Translations under genes and position numbers: made by a program | Assembly (NCBI GenBank): GCA_028864975.1 | Contig: JAGWLG010000049.1 | Span: 1-14,971, forward strand | Direction: 5' to 3' | Source: Thermoplasmata archaeon | Lineage (GTDB): Archaea > Thermoplasmatota > Thermoplasmata > Lutacidiplasmatales > UBA184 | Length of the DNA: 14,971 bases | In this document: one piece after another, positions 2,299 to 14,913 of the stretch | Numbering within the stretch: position 1 is the first letter of the stretch | How the letters are laid out: every line of letters starts with the position of its first letter | The notes under the pieces: model-generated | Database searches by the model: none | What the model was told of the DNA's origin: nothing | Seen by the model: the letters and a program-made list of their open reading frames with translations, nothing else

Positions 2299-2802
2299 TC
2301 AGCGCAAGAAGACGCAGGCCGCGATGCAGACCCCGTAGTGGTCCATCGGGATCGAGAGCTCTTCGGTCCGGTAGAAGATCTTGCGGAGCTCGACCCCGCG
2401 GAAATGGGCGATCTCCTGCATGCGCCAGCGTAGGAACTCCTTGAGCGCCTTCTGGGTCCCGTGGATGTGGCCCTCGGCCACGTAGCCCCCGTGGCCGTCG
2501 GTTCGGAACCCGTAGGCGATGCCTGCGCTGATGACCTCCCCTTCGCCGCCCTGGTGGCGGGCCAGGACGCAGTGCGTGATGGCCCCCATCGGCAGCACCT
2601 GCCGGTCCACCTGACGGATCCCGTCCGGGAGCACGGAGGAGACCGAGACCAAGTTCTGTTCGCCGATCCCGGCCTTGAGGAGCGCCAAGTCGAAGGCGTT
2701 GAGCTCGCTCGTCTTGTTGATCGCCCGGCCGCTCGACACGAAGAACCGCGTCGGGATCGGGACCAAGGAGGTCGTGTCGCTCTTCTTCTCGGCCTTGGGC
2801 AC
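2299..2802 (-). CDS. pdaD: Pyruvoyl-dependent arginine decarboxylase
   Basis: C-terminal part of track ORF 2299..3900: P.RFFVSSG, SELNAFDLALLKAGIGEQNLVSVSSVLP (Ser-Ser autocleavage site), ISAGIAYG, GYVAE. GTG start at 2802 chosen because CTTAAG (2827-2832) lies about 25 nt upstream. ATG at 2826 is an alternative. Confidence 0.92.
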   Translation of the reverse strand: MPKAEKKSDTTSLVPIPTRFFVSSGRAINKTSELNAFDLALLKAGIGEQNLVSVSSVLPDGIRQVDRQVLPMGAITHCVLARHQGGEGEVISAGIAYGFRTDGHGGYVAEGHIHGTQKALKEFLRWRMQEIAHFRGVELRKIFYRTEELSIPMDHYGVCIAACVFLR

Positions 2803-2826
2803 GAAGAAGGGCCACACGTTCCACAT

Positions 2827-2832
2827 CTTAAG
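2827..2832 (-). promoter_or_regulatory. Putative TATA box of pdaD
   Basis: CTTAAG in GC-rich context, about 25-30 nt upstream of GTG 2802. Confidence 0.5.
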
Positions 2833-3058
2833 CTGATGCCTTCGGCGCTCCCACGGACCCCTTGCGTTCGGCCCCCCGAGATGCTCGGCGTGCGCCGGCC
2901 TCCTCGCGTCACCGACCCGACCGTGAGGTCCCTGGACGAACGAGCGTAGGTTCAAGAGACGGCCCCCCCATGGCGTTCCCGAAGCCGAGCCCCACACGGA
3001 ACGTCGGCACGTCCCAGGCGTGACGGAGGACGGGGTCTCGTCAGGACCGAGGAGGACG

Positions 3059-3505
3059 ATGGCGCTCAAGGAGAAGGACCGCAAGCTCCTCGAGGAGCTC
3101 AAACGCGACGGGCGCGCGACGCTCACCGCCCTCTCCTCGCGCCTTGGCGTGCCTCGCGTCACGTTGCACGACCGGCTCGAGCGGCTGAAGCACGACGGTG
3201 TCATCCGACGGTTCACCGTCATCACCGATGCCTCCCTCGAGGGATTGGGGACCGCCGCCTTCGTCCTTGTCAGCTTCGAGAAGAGCGGAAAGGTCACCCA
3301 GCGTGCGGTCGCCGAGTCGGCGGGTCGGCTGCCTGGCGTGCAGGAGGTCCACATCATCGCGGGCGAGTGGGACATGCTGCTCAAGGTGCGAGGGGAGAGC
3401 TTGGAGGCGATCGGGCGCCTCGTCGTCGAGAAGCTACGGGAGGTCCCCGGGGTCGCTTCGACGATGACCCTCCCCTGTTTCTTCACCGTGAAGGAACTCC
3501 CCTGA
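3059..3505 (+). CDS. Lrp/AsnC family transcriptional regulator
   Basis: N-terminal HTH (KDRKLLEELKRDGRATLTALSSRLGVPRVTLHDRLERL..DGVIRRF) plus RAM domain (VQEVHIIAGEWDMLLKV). ATG 3059 is preceded by GAGGAGG. Confidence 0.95.
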   Translation: MALKEKDRKLLEELKRDGRATLTALSSRLGVPRVTLHDRLERLKHDGVIRRFTVITDASLEGLGTAAFVLVSFEKSGKVTQRAVAESAGRLPGVQEVHIIAGEWDMLLKVRGESLEAIGRLVVEKLREVPGVASTMTLPCFFTVKELP

Positions 3506-3656
3506 ACCCTAAGGGGGGGTCGAGGCTCAGGGAACGTCGAGCGTGGGAGCTCGAGGTCGACCGATCTTCGGTCGATCTTCCCCAGGCCAGGGGCCCGCGA
3601 GCAGGACCTCTCACCGCCCGCGTCCGTCGTCACCGCCTTGGGACTTGGGTCGATCG

Positions 3657-3986
3657 CTAGGCGAGGGACGGCACCGCGCCCGGCGGAACGACCGAAGCGA
3701 GGAGGCTCCCCGGGGTCGGGCTGAACACCCCGTCCACCGCCAGGGTGACCACGATCACCAGGATGACGAGCGCGAGCAGAAGGCCAATGACGATCCACGC
3801 GGGCGGACCGCGCCCCGCGCGCACCGTGGGTGACCATTCCGGTGCGAACAGCACCGGCGTCGGGGCGACCTGGGGAACGTGCGTCGTGCTCATCGAGCAA
3901 CGGGGACAGCCGCTCATCGGCTCGGAGGAGAGGTAACCGCAGACACTGCAGTACCTCCGCGACTCCCCGGTCCCGAGGTCGGACAC
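3657..3986 (-). CDS. Small zinc-ribbon membrane protein
   Basis: Within track ORF 3657..4133: CSVC..CPRC, a Pro-rich linker and TM helix WIVIGLLLALVILVIVVTLAV. GTG start at 3986 is inferred. Confidence 0.7.
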   Translation of the reverse strand: MSDLGTGESRRYCSVCGYLSSEPMSGCPRCSMSTTHVPQVAPTPVLFAPEWSPTVRAGRGPPAWIVIGLLLALVILVIVVTLAVDGVFSPTPGSLLASVVPPGAVPSLA

Positions 3987-4174: not shown

Positions 4175-4816
4175 ACTGCAAGGACCACGAGCGCAGTCCT
4201 CTGGGAGGTCTCGGTCCGGGAGGGGCGCGAACTGCTCACCACGAGGGAGCTCTCCGAGATGGCCGGGCGCATCGGGGCCCGACCCGAGCACGCCCTCCGT
4301 CACCTGCGCCGGGAGGGCTACCTCGTCCCCCTCTTCCGAGGCTTCTACTACGTGAGGACCCCTGAGGAGGTGAGGCTGGGTACTGAGCGGCACGACCCCC
4401 TCGAGCTCTTCGCCCTCGCGGCCCGGGCCAAGGGGATCGGGGCGTGGTACTTTGGTCTCGAGACCGCCTTGCGCCTGCACGGGCTCACGCACGAGGACCG
4501 CCGTGAGGAGACGGTCGTGAGCCGCTCGTTCTACCGCATTCGCGGGGTTCCGATAGGGAGCCGGCGTTTCGTGATCCACAAGTGGGACCCCGGGCTCTTC
4601 GTCTTCGGACTCGTCCGGAGGGGATCCTACCGAGTCAGCGACCCTGAGAAGACCGTCCTCGACCTTGCCTACTTGGACTTCTGGCGGTCGAAGAAGGGGC
4701 ACCCTCCCACCGGGAACTGGACCGAGCATCTGGCCGAGGTGGATGCTCGTCGGGTCCGCCGTTACCTACCCCACTACCCGGAGGAACTCCGTCGGATCGT
4801 GGAGGAACGCCTGTGA
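4172..4816 (+). CDS. Type IV toxin-antitoxin antitoxin, AbiEi family
   Basis: N-terminal wHTH (LLTTREL...L.HLRREGYLVPLFRGFYY), YFGLETAL.LHGL and the SDPEKTVLD motif. GTGA overlap with an AbiEii-like reading frame. Confidence 0.88.
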   Translation: MTARTTSAVLWEVSVREGRELLTTRELSEMAGRIGARPEHALRHLRREGYLVPLFRGFYYVRTPEEVRLGTERHDPLELFALAARAKGIGAWYFGLETALRLHGLTHEDRREETVVSRSFYRIRGVPIGSRRFVIHKWDPGLFVFGLVRRGSYRVSDPEKTVLDLAYLDFWRSKKGHPPTGNWTEHLAEVDARRVRRYLPHYPEELRRIVEERL

Positions 4817-5063
4817 GGTCTTTCGTTTCGATGCTCGCCCAGCACCTGGGCGTGAAAGACCAGGAGCTCCTAGAGAAGGATGTTCGGCTCCACGCTCTTC
4901 TTCGGGGTCTGGTCCGGGACCCGGCCTTCGGCCCACATCTCGTCTTCAAGGGGGGGACGCGCGCCCCCTCCTGCTCAAGCCGATCGACACGGTAGCGTTC
5001 CAGAAGTACAGGGTACGTCTCGTCCCGTTCCTCAAGGGCAGGCTTCCGCGCATCCTCGCGTGA
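4813..5063 (+). pseudogene. AbiEii nucleotidyltransferase toxin, internally deleted
   Basis: Frame from GTG 4813 gives ..LLEKDVRLHALL..LVFKGGT (AbiEii signature) and then stops at 4995. Another frame from about 4968 gives a GC3-rich, C-terminus-like LLLKPIDTVAFQKYRVRLVPFLKGRLPRILA* ending at 5063. The downstream SEDLD-type motif is absent. Confidence 0.75.
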
Positions 5064-5222
5064 CCACCGCTGCACCTTGTTCCTTTCCCACAGGCCGACG
5101 GGCGAGCGATGCCGTCTCGTACCCGTCAGCCCAGTTCCCTACGCCCCACGACGACCGAAGTCGGACACGAGAACGACGGGCAGCGCAGTACCGGGGAAGG
5201 GAAGTGTCCCCGGCAGCCGCGC

Positions 5223-5813
5223 TTAGACCATGATGGCGTGCCGCTGCCGCAGGGACTCTTCGGTCTCGCCGCGCACCTGCATAAGCTCGGCGATGATCCC
5301 GTCCGCGAGGCGCAGGCTACCGGACTCGAAGAGCGTCCCGAGTGGGGAGAGGGTGGGACGGTCCTTCTCCTCCGGGAAGTCGAGCTCGAGCAGGATGTTC
5401 GCAGCGTGGGAGAGCTTGCTGTTACCACGGGAGGTCACGACGATCAGGTCCGCCCCTTCCCGTCGAACGATGTTCGCGGTCTGCAGCGAGGACTGGCTCT
5501 CCCCTCGGTTCGAGAAGATCACCACCAGGTCCCCTTTGCGGACGATGGGGGTCACGGACTCCCCGATGACGTAGGCGGTCACCCCGGTCTGGACCAACCG
5601 CATGGCGAAGGCCCGTGCGATGATCCCGCTCCGACCGGCCCCATAGACGAAGACCTGGGGGGCTTTCTGGACCATCTGCACGGCACGGGAGACCCGCGCC
5701 GGGTCGATCCGGGCGATCGCCTCCGTGACCCGCACCCCGATGTAGTCGACCGCGCGTTGGAACACCCCGCCGGGGGTCGAGGAGGCCGAGGAAGCCCTAT
5801 CGCTTCCGGGCAT
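5223..5813 (-). CDS. SIS-domain protein, 6-phospho-3-hexuloisomerase (HxlB/PHI) homolog
   Basis: VFVYGAGRSG..ARAFAMRL, YVIGESVTP....GDLVVI, PLGTLFE and the C-terminal RH. ATG 5813; overlaps the upstream gene's stop by 17 nt. Confidence 0.88.
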   Translation of the reverse strand: MPGSDRASSASSTPGGVFQRAVDYIGVRVTEAIARIDPARVSRAVQMVQKAPQVFVYGAGRSGIIARAFAMRLVQTGVTAYVIGESVTPIVRKGDLVVIFSNRGESQSSLQTANIVRREGADLIVVTSRGNSKLSHAANILLELDFPEEKDRPTLSPLGTLFESGSLRLADGIIAELMQVRGETEESLRQRHAIMV

Positions 5814-7017
5814 GGGACCCCTTCGACGCCGGTTTCCCCTTGGGCTTCGGTTTCGGTTTCGGTTTCGGCTTGGGCTTCGCCTTGGGCTTAGCCTGCGCCG
5901 GGACCTTCCCTTTGGGCTTTGCGGCGGGCTTACCCTTCGCGGGCTTGGCGGCCTTGGTGGGCTTCGCGCTCTTGACAGGGACCGCCGGGGTCGGGGGAGG
6001 GGGCGCATGCTTCTTCGCGAAGCGCTTCGCCAGCGCCCGCTCGTACAGGAGCTTCATGTACATCGCGTCGTGCTCGAGCAGCGGCGAAGAGGAGATCACC
6101 GTCCCGTCGTACTCGCGCTCGGCGAGCACATCGGCGACGGAGTCGAAGTGGACCGCTCCGCGCTTGATCGGGGTCAAGCGGAAGTCGCCCTGGGCGTAGA
6201 ACTCGACGCCGGAGAAGTTGAGGTAGAGGTTGCCCCGGCTCGCCTCGACGAAGTCATCGACCAGCTTGTGGAGCTCGACCTTGTCCGAGAAGTTCTTGCC
6301 CTCCCGGGCCGCGATATGGGCCAGGTTGAGGACGGGCACGAGCCCCTTGACCTCGCGGGCGAGCTGGAGGATCTCCTCGCGCGTGCCGAAGACCTCGGGG
6401 TGTCCCGAGGGCTCGATCCCCAGTCGGAGCTCCCCGTGGTCGACGCGGTCGAGCCACTTTCGGAGGTCCTTCAGGTCGTTGCGCGTGCGCTCGAAGGAGG
6501 CGTCGTGGTCGGAGGTCCCGTAGAACCCCAGGTGCCCCACCATCGTCTCGGCGCCCAGGGCCTGGGCGAGCGCGGCCGCCCATCGGTACTGCCGCAGGGT
6601 GCGTTCGCGAGCGGAGGGGGAGCTTGCGAAGTCGACGTAGTAGGGCGCGTGCAGCGCGAGATGGACGTCGACGGCGCGGGAGAGGACGCGAGCCTGTTGG
6701 AGGTCGGCGTAGCTCTTCGCGAGGAACCAGGAGAGGACGGTCACGTTCGCCTTGCGGGGGATGGGCTGAAGGAGCGCGGCAGGGTCGGGCGCCTGGTCCG
6801 GCCGCGAACCGGTCGCCACCTCGACAATCAGCTCGTTGGGGATGTCGTAGGGGCGCTTCCCGATCTCCTCCTCGCTCGCCGGGCGGGTGTGCGCGTTGAC
6901 CTTGATGAACTGGACCTCCATCGCCGTGAGACCCAGCGAATGGATGTCGGAGATCCCGTCCCGCAGCGTCCTGCCCTTGCAGGAGAGTGGGATACCTGCA
7001 GGACCGAACCGGATCAT
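5797..7017 (-). CDS. Endonuclease IV-like TIM-barrel protein (degenerate metal sites) with Lys/Pro/Ala-rich C-terminal tail
   Basis: MIRFGPAGIP, LHAPYY, GHLGFY, IEPSG, FSG and SPLLEHDA follow the archaeal EndoIV layout. The last ~65 aa are low-complexity KP/KA. Confidence 0.88.
   Translation of the reverse strand: MIRFGPAGIPLSCKGRTLRDGISDIHSLGLTAMEVQFIKVNAHTRPASEEEIGKRPYDIPNELIVEVATGSRPDQAPDPAALLQPIPRKANVTVLSWFLAKSYADLQQARVLSRAVDVHLALHAPYYVDFASSPSARERTLRQYRWAAALAQALGAETMVGHLGFYGTSDHDASFERTRNDLKDLRKWLDRVDHGELRLGIEPSGHPEVFGTREEILQLAREVKGLVPVLNLAHIAAREGKNFSDKVELHKLVDDFVEASRGNLYLNFSGVEFYAQGDFRLTPIKRGAVHFDSVADVLAEREYDGTVISSSPLLEHDAMYMKLLYERALAKRFAKKHAPPPPTPAVPVKSAKPTKAAKPAKGKPAAKPKGKVPAQAKPKAKPKPKPKPKPKPKGKPASKGSHARKR
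5839..5886. repeat. Coding hexamer tandem repeat (Pro-Lys)n
   Basis: cttggg cttcgg tttcgg tttcgg tttcgg cttggg cttcgc cttggg: eight units encoding PKAKPKPKPKPKPKPK on the minus strand. Confidence 0.9.
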
Positions 7018-7068
7018 CCCGAAGACCCCCGGTCGCCCGGGCGCGCGCGCGGCCTATGGGGCCTTTGA

Positions 7069-7076
7069 GTTAAACC
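7069..7076 (-). promoter_or_regulatory. Putative TATA box of the EndoIV-like/PHI operon
   Basis: GGTTTAAC on the minus strand, about 50 nt upstream of ATG 7017. Confidence 0.45.
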
Positions 7077-7463
7077 TTACGAGCTTCTCAGAGCGCCATT
7101 TCGACCTCCTCGGACAGAGGAATGCCCGGGGAAGTCGACCTCCCGGGGCAGGACCCACCAGCGGTCCCGGGGCTCCACGAGGTCGCGGGAGAAGAGAAAG
7201 CTGCGGGAAGTTCACCCTTCCGCGCCGACGACGGAAGAGGGGAATGTACTCGCCGAGCGCGCGAGCCGCTCTCCGGGGGCGCGGAAGAACTGATCTGGCG
7301 CCGTGCCCGCGAGGCACGGGGCGGAGCGACACCACCGTCAGCAGGCCCAAGGGCGCGATCCCTGGGCTCGTGTCCAAGGAGGGAGGTCGGAGATGCGCGC
7401 GAAGTACGGAGGTCTGGAACGACTTGGCCCTACCACGATCTTCCACGATCCGGAGAACGGCGC

Positions 7464-8852
7464 CTAAGGTCGGAGGCGATCGAACCCCGCTTCCAGGTCG
7501 GTGAGCGCAAAGACCTTCCCCCCTTCCTGGGCCAACAGCTCCTCGGCCCCCGGAGCGACCGGCCCTCGGGCGACCCAGAAGGGTCGCACGGGGAGGTGAT
7601 CGGTGCGCTCCAGGAGAAGGACCTTCCTCCGAAGGCCGCGCACGTCCGCTTCCGACACGGGCCGCTGGGACCAGGTCACCTCCCCTGCCCAGATCTCCTT
7701 CGCCGAGCGCCCGACCAGGTCGATCTCCTCCCCCACGCGGTTCCACCAGCGCCCGACCTCCGTGAATCGAGGGACGCCGGCGAACCGTCCCTCACGGGGG
7801 GCCTCCCGGAGGGCCTCGCGTGCGACGTCCTCGAACACCTTCCCCACGTAGCCGTCGAGCTCGCCGCGGACCTGCGCCCAGGCCTCTCGACCGTGTCCGG
7901 AGTCGATGCTGGCTCGGAGCGGGACGATGAACCGGTAGTAGAAGCGAAAGAAGGGGTCATGGACCTGGTAGCGCGTTCGCTTGGAGAGACCACAGATGGG
8001 GGTTTCGGCCTCGAGGAGGTCGAGGTCGCCGCTCAGGAGCCGCAGGTAGGGGGCGAGGCCCCCCGAGGCGACCCCGAGCCGAGATTCGAGCTCGCGGACC
8101 GAGCGCCCTCCGCGCGCCACCTCGCTCAGGATGCTGTGGTAGCGCGTCGGCTCCCGGGTCTCCTCGGCGAGGAGCCCTTGCGGCTCGTCCAGGAGCGGGA
8201 GCCCCGGCTCGAGCATCGAGGCCCGCAGAGCCTCCTCTCGCGATCGCCCCACGCTTTGCTGGTGGTAGTACGGGGTTCGGCCGAAGATCGCGAAGCGCAC
8301 GACACGCTCAGGCTCCTTGAGCTCAGGGTAGAGGAGCCGCACCGCCGCGTAGGAGAAAGGGTGGAGGTGGAGGTCGCGGGTCAGCCGTCCGTAGAACGGA
8401 CCCGACCGATACCGCGAGAGCGCCTGCATCATCCCCACGCTGCTACCGGAGACGACGAGGTGAGGGCCCTGCTCGTGCCAGCGGGCTTCCCAACGGCGCT
8501 GGACCTGACCCGCGACATGGAGGTCGCGTCCGATCAGGTTCTGGAACTCGTCGAGGATGACGCTCCTGGCCCCCGACCGCTCGAGCTCGTCCAGGAACCC
8601 CTCCCAGGTGGGATCCGGGGGGACCGGGCGACGGGTCGCGAGCGCGAGCTGGGACCAGAGCGCCCGCAGTTGGACCTCCCGTTCCCCCGGGTCCGCGACC
8701 AGGTAGAGGGCGCCGGTCGTGGGGAGGATCTCTCGGAGGAGGGCGGTCTTCCCCACGCGCCGTCGTCCCGCCACTCGGACGAACTGCGGAGGTCGTGCCG
8801 TGAGTAGGTTCTGAAGGAGCTCCCGCTCGGAGGACCGGTCAACAAACTTCAC
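7464..8852 (-). CDS. Archaeal AAA+ ATPase (COG1672 type) with wHTH and C-terminal DUF234 nuclease-like domain
   Basis: MKFVDR..E, Walker A GRRRVGKT, Walker B VILDEFQ, LVVSGSS, PFYGR, DPFFRFYYRF, GKVFE, GRWW...EEIDLV. Confidence 0.92.
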   Translation of the reverse strand: MKFVDRSSERELLQNLLTARPPQFVRVAGRRRVGKTALLREILPTTGALYLVADPGEREVQLRALWSQLALATRRPVPPDPTWEGFLDELERSGARSVILDEFQNLIGRDLHVAGQVQRRWEARWHEQGPHLVVSGSSVGMMQALSRYRSGPFYGRLTRDLHLHPFSYAAVRLLYPELKEPERVVRFAIFGRTPYYHQQSVGRSREEALRASMLEPGLPLLDEPQGLLAEETREPTRYHSILSEVARGGRSVRELESRLGVASGGLAPYLRLLSGDLDLLEAETPICGLSKRTRYQVHDPFFRFYYRFIVPLRASIDSGHGREAWAQVRGELDGYVGKVFEDVAREALREAPREGRFAGVPRFTEVGRWWNRVGEEIDLVGRSAKEIWAGEVTWSQRPVSEADVRGLRRKVLLLERTDHLPVRPFWVARGPVAPGAEELLAQEGGKVFALTDLEAGFDRLRP

Positions 8853-10889: not shown

Positions 10890-11540
10890 CTACGGACAAG
10901 TTGTGGTCGAACCACAGTTGTTCAGGATCACGGTCACCGATGTAATTGTGGGCATTGACGTAAGTGTGCCGAGGTCGATGAACACCGTCTCTCCAATCGA
11001 GCTAGGCGGGGAGCTCGAAGGGATGGCTCCCTGCCCAAGGTATCCGTATCCAACAGCGGTGGCTGCTGGAGAGGACATGATGACAATTATTTCGATGTCA
11101 AACGCGTTGTTCGCGGAGCCGGTGGTTGCCAGAGCGACGGTCATCGGAACCTCCTCGAAGTAGTCTCCGGCTGTAGGAACGTTGGTACCGCTGGCTTGTG
11201 TGTCTTGGTAGGCGGTACAGCCTGACGTGGTACAGAGCGCTTGAGCAGTGCCGTCGAAGCCAACAGTGCTAGTGGTCTGGGTCCCCGCCGCCTGACCTGG
11301 CAGCGTGCCAAGGGTTAGCGTCTGCAGACTACCCATCGTCACTCCCGGAGCGGTACTAGAGCTGGCCGTGCCACCGCTTGTACCCTGGCCTGTCGGAAAC
11401 GACAAGGTTGTCGTGAACGCGGCCAGCGCGAACCCCCCCACCATCGCCAGCATGCTGACAATGGTCGCCACATATACGCTGGATCGCCGAATTCTCCGTC
11501 GAGTGGTCGTCTTCGGTCCGTTCGCTTCCATTCTTCTCAT
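10890..11540 (-). CDS. Secreted/surface Thr-Ser-Gly-rich protein with N-terminal signal peptide
   Basis: 216 aa from ATG 11540, preceded by AAGGAGTG. Basic n-region RRRIRR, hydrophobic VYVATIVSMLAMVGGFALA, and two Cys pairs (CTTSGC, CGSTTTC). TTTATTA at 11650-11656 is a candidate TATA. The track ORF start at 11732 looks over-extended. Confidence 0.8.
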   Translation of the reverse strand: MRRMEANGPKTTTRRRIRRSSVYVATIVSMLAMVGGFALAAFTTTLSFPTGQGTSGGTASSSTAPGVTMGSLQTLTLGTLPGQAAGTQTTSTVGFDGTAQALCTTSGCTAYQDTQASGTNVPTAGDYFEEVPMTVALATTGSANNAFDIEIIVIMSSPAATAVGYGYLGQGAIPSSSPPSSIGETVFIDLGTLTSMPTITSVTVILNNCGSTTTCP

Positions 11541-12063
11541 CACTCCTTCTTGTTTCGTCTCGCCAAGGCTCCCCTGAACCCGGCCCCCCGAGGAAAACAG
11601 GGACGGGTCCGTCTCGACCCCCAGCGAAGGAAGTAATCGTCGTAGGGGGTAATAAACGCCCCGAGGGGGGCCGGACGACGGCGGCGACAGCCACCCCCGT
11701 GAGGGCGCTGGCGGGAGAGACCGCCCGCGCAACGTCCGAAGGGTGCGCTGACGCCATCGAGCGCATCTCGAAGGCGCTGGGACCGGCTTCCGTTACCTCA
11801 CCCTGGAGGCCGACGCGCCCGACGCGCGGCCGGCGGAGCCCGTCCGACGGCGAGCTCGTTGAACGGAAGACACCCGCCGCGTCCCTCTCCTGGCACCTCA
11901 GAAGAGGACTTCGAGGTTGGCGCCAGCGAGGCTGTGCAAGGTTCCGTGGGCCTGAGGGGTCCATGGAGAACGTTTCGCCTTCGATGCGCAACCGGTACGC
12001 CGTTGCAGAAGGGGGTCTCAAATCGCCGGGGTCACGAGGCCTCCAAGGCGCCGCTCCCTGGAT

Positions 12064-12095
12064 GGCCCTGGTATTGACTGAGAACAACTTCTTTC
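12064..12095 (+). repeat. Left terminal inverted repeat
   Basis: GGCCCTGGTATTGACTGAGAACAACTTCTTTC. Confidence 0.9.
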
Positions 12096-12129
12096 GCGTT
12101 TTCCCCGTTTCTCCGATAGTGGAGCCGTC

Positions 12130-14820
12130 CTAGGTGAACCCCTGTTTCCCCATCAGGGCCACGTGGTCCCACATCACGGGCGTGGCCGCAGGGATCTTTC
12201 GTAGCTTCGAGCCGTACCTCTTGGCCGTCCAGAACACGATTGAGTTCATCAGCAGGACCCGGCACAGGACGTTCACCTCCTGGCGACGTGGGTCCCGGGT
12301 TTGCATTCGGCCCGCGTGACCCCAGTTCACATCCGTCTCGAAGAAGTTCCACCGCTCCACCCGGTTGCACGACTCCCGCACCTGGCGCCGGAGATCGGGG
12401 GAGAGGGCGTACCTCAGGACGTAGATGGTACGCACGGCCTTCCCCAGCTCCCGAAGGGCCTCGCTGACGTTCCTCCCCTCCTCGTCGTAGATGTTCCAGG
12501 CCCGGAGAACGTCCCGGGCGTGGACCTTGCCCTCCTGCAACGCCTTCACCAACCGCGCCAGCGAGGGGAGCGCACGCTCGATCTTTCGCCAGTCGATCTG
12601 TCCCACCCCCTCGACGGGAAGTCCCTCCGCGGACCCGTCATAGTAGAGCTTCACCTTCCCGAGGCCACGGAAGCGGGCCATGATCCTCTTGCCCATCAGG
12701 AGGGAGAGCGCCCACAGCGCCAGGTGTTGCCCGTGCGTGTCTCCGGCCGCCCATTCCGGGCTCGTCCCTCCGAAGGGCTCGAGAATCGAGGAGAGAAGGT
12801 ACCACGATTCCCATTCCCTCGGCGAGATCAGCCCCATCTGCACGGCGATGCCATCGTTCCGAATCATCCAGTACACGGTCATCCCCACCTTCTTGTGCCG
12901 AGGGTGGAAGCCCGACTGGAGCGTTTTCTCCGAGGAGATCACGGACTTCCCGTCCGCCGCCGACCCTTTCCCGTCTCCCCACGGGAGTCCCAGCCTCTCC
13001 CGCTCCCAGGCCTCCAGCAACTGTCGAAGGGCCACCCGCAACGCCGGCGCGGTCAGATGGACCTCATCGAAGTTCTTCAGCTTCCCCACGGTCATCCGCT
13101 TGGAGAAGAGGCCGGACATCGCCCGGACCCCCACGTCCATGGCCCGGGCCAGGATGCAGGCGATGGCCTGGGTCTCCCGCTCCAGCTTCGGCAGTCGTCG
13201 CGCCTCGGGATGCTTTGGGGCGAACGCCTCCAGGAAGTCTGTCCACCCGTGAACGTCACGGAGTACTCTGGCAGGGGTGACGTCCGGGACACCGCTTAGG
13301 AATCGTTGCCGGGCGCGCTCGTTGGCCCGCTCCTGCGCTTTCTCCCACTTCCGTGACGGGCGTCGCCCGATCAGTCGTCCACCTTCGATGGCCAGGCCTC
13401 GTGGAGCTTGCGCCAACTCCGTCCATGTCTGTCCGATCTCCCGTCGAATCGTCGCCAGGGCCTCGACGAGAGGGGCCGGGGAGGAAGGGCTCACGTCTCG
13501 CATGGGCTTCCATTCGTCCCTGAACTGACGGGAGGCGGGGCAGACCACCCTTCTGGCCCACAGCATGTCGGCCAGCGTGAGCAGGACGATGGTGTCGAAG
13601 ACACGACGCTCGGTCATCAGCTCGTCCGGGACAGGGAGGAATCTCAGGCGCCACCGGAGGTGGGCCGGAACGGGTGTTCGGAAGGGCTGCACCTCGAGGA
13701 CCTCCGGGAGGATGGCCACCACGGTTCGTGCGTGGGCGTCCTTCCCCTCGAAGGCAACGCCTCGCAGGTGGGGGACCATCTGTCGGGCGACGACGGCCTT
13801 CCTGGCGAGGATGCGGTAGAAACCCCGGCGGGAGCGTACCTCCTTCTCATGCTCGGCCAGGGTCCTGGCCAAGGGCCGGAACCGGTGGAACCTCTTGGGG
13901 GGGCCGGCCCGGGTCGAGCCCAGAAGGGCTCGATAGAGGGGCTGGAACTTGAGGTCCCCGCGCTCGAAGAGGGCTTGGCTGGCCTCGGCGATGCTCTCCT
14001 TCGCCTGCTTCTTGGACCTCTTGCGGATCGAGCTGCACCGCCGCGCGAAGATGTACAGGCAGTTGTCCAAGGCCTGCTGGCCACGGAACGCGAGGTAGAA
14101 TCGATGGGCGTGGAGGACCTGTTTCTCCTCCCAACGGTCCAGGGTGCTGTTGGCCCTGCGTTCGAAGAAGTCGTAGAGCTCCTCGCAGGCGGGGTGGTCG
14201 AGGAGGCGTTCTTGGGAGAGCCCCATGGACCGGAGGGTCTCCTGGACCTCCCGCCGGCAGGTGCTCTCCGCGACGAGCCTGTCGAGGTTGGGCTTGCCGT
14301 GAGCCGCAGGAGGAAAGCGCAGAAGCTCTCGAACCACGACGACCCTACGTGGAAGAGCCCGTCGTGACATCGCGGTCCCGGCTGCGCGGGCAAGGAAGGC
14401 CTGTCGTTCGAGTCGAGACTGGCGGTGGAGCCTGCCGCGGAGCGTCTGGAGGAATCTCCGAAGGCGGTCGGGCGTGGGTGGGATCGCCCCGCGTCTCGAA
14501 AGGTAGCGGCCTGCCGTCGTGACGACGGAACGCGCAGGGGCCGCGGAGTCCCAAGCCCCCTCGGCGACCCCTTCCGCGAGGATCCGGAGGAGCGCGGTGG
14601 GATGGAATCGCCGGAATCGGTGGTCCTTGCAGAAGGTCGTCCAGACCCGGCTGTAGGTGGCTGGGGAGGGATTCGAGAGTTTGGCCTTCAGCGCGGTGGG
14701 GAGCCTGTGGCGCCGTTCTTCCAGGCCTCGGCAGAACATGGGGTACGTGACCCGGGTTGAGCCGTCCCAGAGCCTGTCGACGGTTGAACGATAGGCTGCC
14801 CACCGATCCAGAGGCCCCAC
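12130..14820 (-). CDS. tnpA: Tn3-family DDE transposase (TnpA-like)
   Basis: 896 aa, uninterrupted. Tn3 core motifs WGDG..SAADG (D codon 12952-12954), GFHPRH, REWESWYLL, GDTHG (D codon 12739-12741), ARFRGL..VKLY, ALRELGKAVRTIYVLRY....LRRQV...CNRVE (E codon 12355-12357), L.NSIVFW. Confidence 0.9.
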   Translation of the reverse strand: MGPLDRWAAYRSTVDRLWDGSTRVTYPMFCRGLEERRHRLPTALKAKLSNPSPATYSRVWTTFCKDHRFRRFHPTALLRILAEGVAEGAWDSAAPARSVVTTAGRYLSRRGAIPPTPDRLRRFLQTLRGRLHRQSRLERQAFLARAAGTAMSRRALPRRVVVVRELLRFPPAAHGKPNLDRLVAESTCRREVQETLRSMGLSQERLLDHPACEELYDFFERRANSTLDRWEEKQVLHAHRFYLAFRGQQALDNCLYIFARRCSSIRKRSKKQAKESIAEASQALFERGDLKFQPLYRALLGSTRAGPPKRFHRFRPLARTLAEHEKEVRSRRGFYRILARKAVVARQMVPHLRGVAFEGKDAHARTVVAILPEVLEVQPFRTPVPAHLRWRLRFLPVPDELMTERRVFDTIVLLTLADMLWARRVVCPASRQFRDEWKPMRDVSPSSPAPLVEALATIRREIGQTWTELAQAPRGLAIEGGRLIGRRPSRKWEKAQERANERARQRFLSGVPDVTPARVLRDVHGWTDFLEAFAPKHPEARRLPKLERETQAIACILARAMDVGVRAMSGLFSKRMTVGKLKNFDEVHLTAPALRVALRQLLEAWERERLGLPWGDGKGSAADGKSVISSEKTLQSGFHPRHKKVGMTVYWMIRNDGIAVQMGLISPREWESWYLLSSILEPFGGTSPEWAAGDTHGQHLALWALSLLMGKRIMARFRGLGKVKLYYDGSAEGLPVEGVGQIDWRKIERALPSLARLVKALQEGKVHARDVLRAWNIYDEEGRNVSEALRELGKAVRTIYVLRYALSPDLRRQVRESCNRVERWNFFETDVNWGHAGRMQTRDPRRQEVNVLCRVLLMNSIVFWTAKRYGSKLRKIPAATPVMWDHVALMGKQGFT

Positions 14821-14881
14821 CCATCCCCTGGTGTAGGGCCCGGCGGCATGGAGATGATGGCGCCCGGTCGCGGAATAATCT

Positions 14882-14913
14882 GAAAGGAATAGTGCTCAGT
14901 CAATACCAGGGCC
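14882..14913 (-). repeat. Right terminal inverted repeat
   Basis: Reverse complement GGCCCTGGTATTGACTGAGCACTATTCCTTTC; four mismatches to the left TIR. Confidence 0.9.

Follow-up and report, generated by a model that had tools for sequence, protein, structure and literature searches.

The DNA studied here raises the question of whether a Tn3-family transposase gene, standing alone between two inverted repeats in an archaeal contig, is a working mobile element, and how such an element could move with nothing of its own to resolve the products of transposition. The stretch, hereafter the window, is the complete 14,971-bp contig C81 of a Thermoplasmata metagenome-assembled genome (MAG), G000 (3.6 Mb in 124 contigs, 89.6% complete), and the element occupies 2850 bp of it (12064–14913; Table 1). 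We find that it has recently been mobile between two archaeal genera, and we conclude that it is very probably an autonomous, single-gene insertion sequence (IS) of the Tn3 family that has no resolution module and that, by analogy with the family, would move by a copy-in route.

Table 1. Positions of the element's parts and of its target-site duplication in the window.
Feature	Position	Strand	Remarks
Target-site duplication GGAT (4 bp), left copy	12060..12063		Identical bases beyond the other tip
Terminal inverted repeat, tnpA 3′ end	12064..12095	+	32 nt, tip GGCC; homology to the G010 copy starts here
Spacer between stop codon and repeat	12096..12129	-	34 nt; below the size of a res site or gene
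tnpA, 896-aa Tn3-family DDE transposase	12130..14820	-	Stop codon included
Codon of catalytic E822	12355..12357	-	Computed from residue number; E881 of Tn4430 TnpA
Codon of catalytic D694	12739..12741	-	Computed from residue number; D751 of Tn4430 TnpA
Codon of catalytic D623	12952..12954	-	Computed from residue number; D679 of Tn4430 TnpA
Spacer upstream of tnpA	14821..14881	-	61 nt
Terminal inverted repeat, tnpA 5′ end	14882..14913	-	32 nt, tip GGCC; homology to the G010 copy stops here
Target-site duplication GGAT (4 bp), right copy	14914..14917		Matches the left copy

The initial annotation of this locus, made from the letters alone, had placed an 896-aa open reading frame (ORF) between two terminal inverted repeats with short spacers on either side, and all of its coordinates were reproduced. 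The repeat arms are 88% complementary over 32 nt, with a perfect outer 19 nt, and form the strongest inverted repeat in the region. Only tnpA lies between them: there is no ORF with a recombinase domain and no space for one, and the absence of a resolvase, res site or cargo described in that annotation stands. The tnpA frame opens with a GTG start. Public gene callers begin the protein at Met28, which gives 869 aa; we prefer the 896-aa reading because the alignments of homologues from the clade described below start at residues 3–14. An A/T-rich box, CAGATTATT (minus strand, ~14874–14882), spans the inner boundary of one repeat, with its inner part within the 61-nt spacer upstream of tnpA, and this spacer is a putative promoter region.

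The closest copy of the element is found in G010, a Thermoplasmata archaeon MAG from another genus of the host's family. It is likewise 2850 bp long and 94.07% identical without indels, and the homology is confined exactly to positions 12064–14913 of the window, with unrelated flanks on both sides. Because the homology stops at both tips, the ends of the element are confirmed independently of the repeats. Divergence between the two copies is uneven outside the gene (2 of 93 positions changed upstream of tnpA, 11 of 66 downstream), and within it the synonymous and non-synonymous divergences are dS 0.156 and dN 0.030, a dN/dS of 0.19. With this ratio, both repeats present and an intact Asp-Asp-Glu (DDE) triad, the element is complete, as had been proposed.

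The G010 copy occupies a different site, where its target duplication is TTCA. This site is inside the transposase gene of a DDE_Tnp_1 (IS4/IS5-like) IS (L003:1040–1431 and 4282–5688, on G010:C9), and another genome, G001, holds two intact copies of the same IS (L013 and L015; 84–87% identical). When the flanks of the G010 copy are aligned on the two intact G001 paralogues, the columns that they share number exactly four (TTCA versus TTCT and TTCG), which demonstrates a 4-bp duplication directly. TnpA is 94% identical to its G010 counterpart and 43–47% identical to those of genomes in the host's own genus, whereas the host PCMT shares 49% identity with that of G010 and 57–60% with those of the same-genus genomes. 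Since the transposases are 94% identical in hosts whose PCMT proteins share 49%, the element was transferred recently between archaeal genera. Searches of G000, G001, G003 and G010 for extra copies or miniature derivatives at the DNA, protein and repeat-pattern level (up to 3 mismatches) recovered nothing beyond the two known ends of the element in G000 and the two in G010. G001, G002, G003 and G010 also gave no match to the flank beyond the element that could serve as an orthologous empty site for the window insertion. An exact scan for the 19-nt repeat tip recovered G010 and three single bacterial matches, about the chance expectation, from the genome collection, and no match from the metagenome collection.

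TnpA is a true Tn3-family transposase whose multi-domain architecture matches that of Tn4430 TnpA in full; domain, profile and structural comparisons concur in this assignment, which bears out the family membership first proposed. Pfam places DDE_Tnp_Tn3 (PF01526) on residues 519–879 (1.5e-68, 231.8 bits against a cut-off of 24) and no other domain. Residues D623, D694 and E822 align one for one with D679, D751 and E881, the catalytic triad of Tn4430 TnpA (PMC9579193), and are invariant across 15 clade sequences. By phmmer, the best relative of solved structure is Tn4430 TnpA (1.3e-23), covering residues 470–895 only; a profile of 15 clade members compared with 11 classical TnpAs by hhalign extends the relationship to residues 82–901 at a probability of 100%, leaving the first ~80 residues unaligned. 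The AlphaFold2 model of TnpA (predicted local distance difference test, pLDDT, 80.6) has a single significant Foldseek match, Tn4430 TnpA (7qd4_A, 1.4e-21), and VIA-align superposes residues 1–896 of the model on residues 42–965 of the Tn4430 chain, with Z 32.1 and 759 aligned residues. An ESM Atlas feature search gave Tn3-like leads below threshold only.

The N-terminal region is the most divergent part of the protein. Folded alone, residues 1–140 reach a pLDDT of 92.5, and their best match among 48,161 chains is residues 43–183 of Tn4430 TnpA, at a middling Z of 7.0 over 127 residues; the other rows cover about half of the model, with the exception of one weaker row (81 residues, root-mean-square deviation 9.8), and Foldseek returns no match to the N-terminal model at E ≤ 0.001. 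These models suggest that the N-terminus is a strongly diverged DNA-binding module that lacks ~40 leading residues, rather than a replacement of it.

Sequence searches set the element apart from the bacterial members of the family. A phmmer search with TnpA over 1.84 billion representatives returned 1544 matches with a clear gap in score: clade members of at least 659 aa score at least 386 bits at 29–45% identity, and classical TnpAs of ~950–1040 aa score at most 133 bits at 22–33% identity, matching only residues ~450–890. The N-terminal domain DUF4158 (PF13700) is absent from all 13 clade matches in a word-indexed search and present in the classical ones. At least 5000 plasmid records match TnpA, none of which reaches 60% identity; among the matches listed, identity is 22–29%. 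In a FastTree phylogeny of 118 sequences, a branch with 100% support (stem 1.46) separates 22 clade sequences from TnAs3, ISPa38, TnXax1 and a Tn4430-type TnpA. The tree, in which IS1071 is not among the sequences, is unrooted, so it is compatible with either a sister or a nested position relative to the bacterial radiation. On this sequence evidence the element is a member of a small clade that branches deeply and whose known members all come from archaeal genomes or unassigned metagenome contigs. The initial annotation had seen a compact, divergent Tn3-like lineage with an intact triad, and it reads correctly on each point: the 22 sequences separate from the references with full support, the triad residues match those of Tn4430 TnpA, the identity of TnpA to classical TnpAs does not exceed about 29% and is confined to the catalytic half, and no plasmid-borne TnpA reveals the close match to a described Tn3 subgroup that would have made the element a familiar one.

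We delimited ~20 further elements of the clade, in G003, in G346 (a genome from another family of the phylum, with four copies) and in contigs from ENA, NCBI and JGI. All contain tnpA only, most begin with GGCC, and their lengths fall between 2.82 and 2.88 kb, save for L027, which a nested DDE_Tnp_1 IS makes longer (the reverse of the nesting seen in G010). None carries a resolution module, and toxin-antitoxin or integrase genes near these elements lie outside the repeats. The repeats are 32–49 nt long, with the consensus GGCCTtg..cTTGatT.ag.G.aaa...TTtcaaatT; their tips are GGCC in 16 of 18 aligned ends and GGTC in the remaining two. Perfect 4-bp duplications flank seven independent insertions (GGAT, TTCA, TCGA, TTTC, AGTA, TACT and GGTT), and no clade element has a 5-bp duplication or admits a consistent 5-bp reading. 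A 5-bp duplication with a shared G would fit the window, L003 and L059 and is ruled out by L027, L028 and L060. Among the six duplications tested, A and T predominate: 8 of 24 positions are G+C, against a 65% background (P = 0.0016). A MNT/HepT (nucleotidyltransferase/HEPN) toxin-antitoxin pair at L029:3574–4394 stands ~500 bp outside the left repeat of one clade element, and a similar pair adjoins tnpA in the record of the bacterial ISPa38.

Could a resolvase act in trans? The only match to the serine recombinase domain PF00239 in G000 is a 271-aa protein (G000:C13:27837–29874; L035:1354–3391) with a TnpB-like ORF downstream that carries a Cas12f1-like TNB domain, and because this ORF adjoins it, the recombinase is of IS607 type. 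G000 also encodes seven tyrosine recombinases, five of them in one array on contig C73, all unlinked to the element, and nothing ties them to it. We therefore rejected a trans-acting resolvase in G000. The missing module is compatible with membership in the Tn3 family, because known IS-type members also do without one, and since ISfinder lists ~30 Tn3-family insertion sequences (PMC4133298), the resolvase-less state is not new.

On the copy-in reading, TnpA would bind the 32-nt, GGCC-tipped repeats, most likely through its strongly diverged N-terminal module. It would then nick the 3′ ends of the element and transfer them to the target strands at positions 4 bp apart, within locally A/T-rich tetranucleotides. 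Movement would be replicative, as expected from membership in the Tn3 family. By the same analogy, intermolecular events would yield cointegrates resolvable by host homologous recombination only, as is assumed for IS-type members such as IS1071, and copies produced by intramolecular events would not be flanked by matching duplications.

Several observations weigh against an ordinary Tn3-type, replicative IS. TnpA aligns with the NCBIfam model NF033527 ('transpos_Tn3') over residues 86–864 at 255.5 bits, under the 500-bit equivalog cut-off, and is thus, as judged from sequence, homologous to that model but outside its equivalog range. DUF4158 has no Pfam match at E ≤ 1 on the whole protein or at E ≤ 0.01 on residues 1–130. 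GGCC tips and a 4-bp stagger are non-canonical for the family, and because both depart from family traits, the mechanism may differ in further respects. About half of the clade copies have no duplication; these are mostly in metagenome assemblies, where joins that span repeats can be chimeric. G000 and G010 carry one copy each and no repeat-derived miniature elements, which fits an element of low activity. Finally, we saw neither a transposition intermediate nor a cointegrate, nor two identical copies in one genome, and for this reason the replicative step is drawn from family analogy.

One alternative is that the element moves by a non-cointegrate route, such as cut-and-paste or another simple-insertion pathway, that needs no resolvase, the 4-bp stagger reflecting a remodelled transpososome. 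The lack of a resolution module throughout ~20 clade elements, the single copy in each of G000 and G010, the unusual duplication length and tips, and the diverged N-terminal module would all suit such a route. We nevertheless think it unlikely. The whole architecture of TnpA is conserved with Tn4430 TnpA, for which paste-and-copy transposition is documented (PMC9579193; bioRxiv 10.64898/2026.05.30.728999), we saw no second nuclease or hairpin-forming feature, and some 30 bacterial Tn3-family insertion sequences were on record in ISfinder before (PMC4133298). The many clade copies that lack a duplication or share one junction, moreover, are a better fit to replicative rearrangement if their assemblies are correct.

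Two sets of clade loci have such junctions. In L067 and L069 (JGI Ga0194126_10058887 and Ga0194113_10049287), the element and 116 bp of right flank are 100% identical and the left flanks are unrelated; either the element is multi-copy and both junctions are real, or the assemblies are chimeric. L029, an ENA contig from a sister strain of G000, holds a second clade element at 4900–7758 whose 917-aa TnpA is 33% identical to that of the window and which is missing from G000. The left part of the contig (L029:1–4899) equals G000:C16:7091–2194, and C16 continues without a break past the position of the left junction; to the right of the element lies other DNA that resembles C73 in part. A rearrangement at one end, the exchange of an island or a chimeric assembly may account for this arrangement. 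More generally, one-ended junctions are expected from unresolved replicative events, and chimeras or replacement of the flanking island explain them equally well.

A second alternative to the copy-in IS is vertical descent of the window copy, either as a relic that can no longer move or as a domesticated transposase gene. Such a gene could show what we see of the single copy per genome, the fixed site in four assemblies of the species and the purifying selection on tnpA. We consider this very improbable, however, because both repeats and the duplication are intact, because a 94% identical copy interrupts another IS at a different site in G010, where PCMT identity drops to 49%, and because most relatives have no element (the clade profile finds a match in 4 of 150 genomes of the same family other than G000).

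The window's other genes include those for a pyruvoyl-dependent arginine decarboxylase, an ATPase_2 + DUF234 ATPase, PCMT, FtsJ and RNase HII, all archaeal-type, and the G+C content of the element (63–68%) is the same as that of the contig. Identical insertions are present in three other assemblies, which reach 300–830 bp further and one of which places the element on a 161-kb contig, where an acylphosphatase-domain gene starts ~76 bp from the element. Since the junctions recur in three assemblies, the neighbours are archaeal-type and the G+C content agrees, we reject contamination and misassembly. Bacterial DNA misbinned or chimerically assembled into an archaeal MAG, an origin that a position 58 bp from the contig end, the overwhelmingly bacterial distribution of the Tn3 family (PMC3526298) and the rarity of PF01526 in the class (3 of 301 sampled genomes) and phylum (6 of 401) might suggest, is a negligible prospect when archaeal-type genes flank the insertion on both sides, when the nearest relatives come from the phylum itself (four related Thermoplasmata genomes and one more), and when TnpA is less than 30% identical to any plasmid-borne bacterial TnpA. 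The archaeal chromosomal location given in the initial annotation thus holds, on the evidence of these neighbours, the copy in the same-family G010 and the 161-kb contig, with no sign of a contaminant or misassembly.

Elsewhere in the clade, one protein is assigned by NCBI to a 'Nitrososphaerota archaeon', and a search of IMG/VR for relatives on a viral vector found none. One Thermoplasmatota MAG (G319, 78% complete) contains a Tn3 catalytic domain of classical type (L044; G319:C89:2182–3351; PF01526 at 449 bits) that is 23% identical to TnpA and may represent bacterial contamination or a separate acquisition. Within the window, no gene is called by the public assemblies in the ~900 bp to the left of the element (11164–12063), where long ORFs have no Pfam match and there is no Rfam or tRNA match; G+C drops to 0.61 at 11001–11500. 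No RNA gene was found near the insertion, or anywhere in the window, by Rfam or ARAGORN. The arginine decarboxylase assignment concerns a 533-aa frame (2299–3900, minus strand) of which only the last 150 residues match pyruvoyl-dependent arginine decarboxylase and the upstream ~380 residues have no Pfam match; it could have a long N-terminal extension or be two genes in one frame.

How does the copy-in IS proposed here compare with characterized systems? Tn4430 TnpA (PDB 7QD4 and 7QD8) has the same multi-domain architecture and the same positions and spacing of the triad, at 16% identity in the structural alignment, and the archaeal protein is ~90–100 aa shorter. Tn4430 differs in its TnpI resolvase (seen beside a Tn4430-type TnpA), its 38-bp repeats (PMC9579193) and its 5-bp duplication (bioRxiv 10.64898/2026.05.30.728999), whereas the archaeal element has no resolvase, 32-nt repeats with GGCC tips and a 4-bp duplication. 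Duplications of 5 bp are also documented for Tn4662a and TIMEs. ISPa38 and TnAs3 (Tn21-type, from enterobacterial plasmids) have the PF01526 catalytic domain in common with the archaeal TnpA, and in the record examined ISPa38 tnpA has no adjacent resolvase; both transposases, however, are 988 aa long with DUF4158-type N-termini, share 26–27% identity over the catalytic half only and fall on the opposite side of the fully supported split.

IS1071 and other IS-type Tn3 members likewise consist of a tnpA gene framed by inverted repeats and carry neither resolvase nor cargo. IS1071 has ~110-bp repeats, a 5-bp duplication and bacterial hosts, in contrast to the 32-nt repeats, 4-bp duplication and archaeal hosts found here; the plasmid collection, in which its carriers are expected, holds TnpAs of at most about 29% identity among the matches listed. 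In the ISfinder description of the Tn3 family, repeat tips begin with GGGG, and such tips, like the 5-bp duplication, are regarded as hallmarks of the family. The length of the archaeal repeats (32 nt; 32–49 nt in the clade) agrees with the ~38 bp of the family. The core enzymology, then, is that of the known Tn3 family, and the 4-bp duplication, the GGCC tips and the separate, so far archaeal clade are more distinctive than the absence of a resolvase.

This archaeal branch is apparently undescribed. Surveys count the Tn3 family as bacterial. OASIS found it only in bacterial genomes (PMC3526298), the absence of the family from archaea-rich plasmidomes has been called conspicuous (PMC8563766), and in a literature search that did not extend to ISfinder or TnCentral we found no description of archaeal Tn3-family elements. 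It is possible, and we put it forward tentatively, that the clade is confined to archaea and stands as a sister lineage, at family level, to the bacterial Tn3 transposases, that its transpososome joins ends 4 bp apart and that it has dispensed with cointegrate resolution, either by coupling strand transfer to the eukaryote-like replisome of archaea or by cointegrate-free movement. Were this so, it would provide the first demonstration of a Tn3-type system at work outside Bacteria.

The element documents a recent exchange of a transposon between archaeal genera, and an ISfinder name and subgroup for the clade would let annotation pipelines stop at the correct ends. The clade is also a natural variant in which to ask which features of the TnpA dimer determine how far apart the strand transfers occur. 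It offers, too, a test of the 'replication hijacking' model of 2026 (bioRxiv 10.64898/2026.05.30.728999), which ties Tn3-family transposition to the replication fork of the target; any such fork would here consist of replication proteins of archaeal rather than bacterial type.

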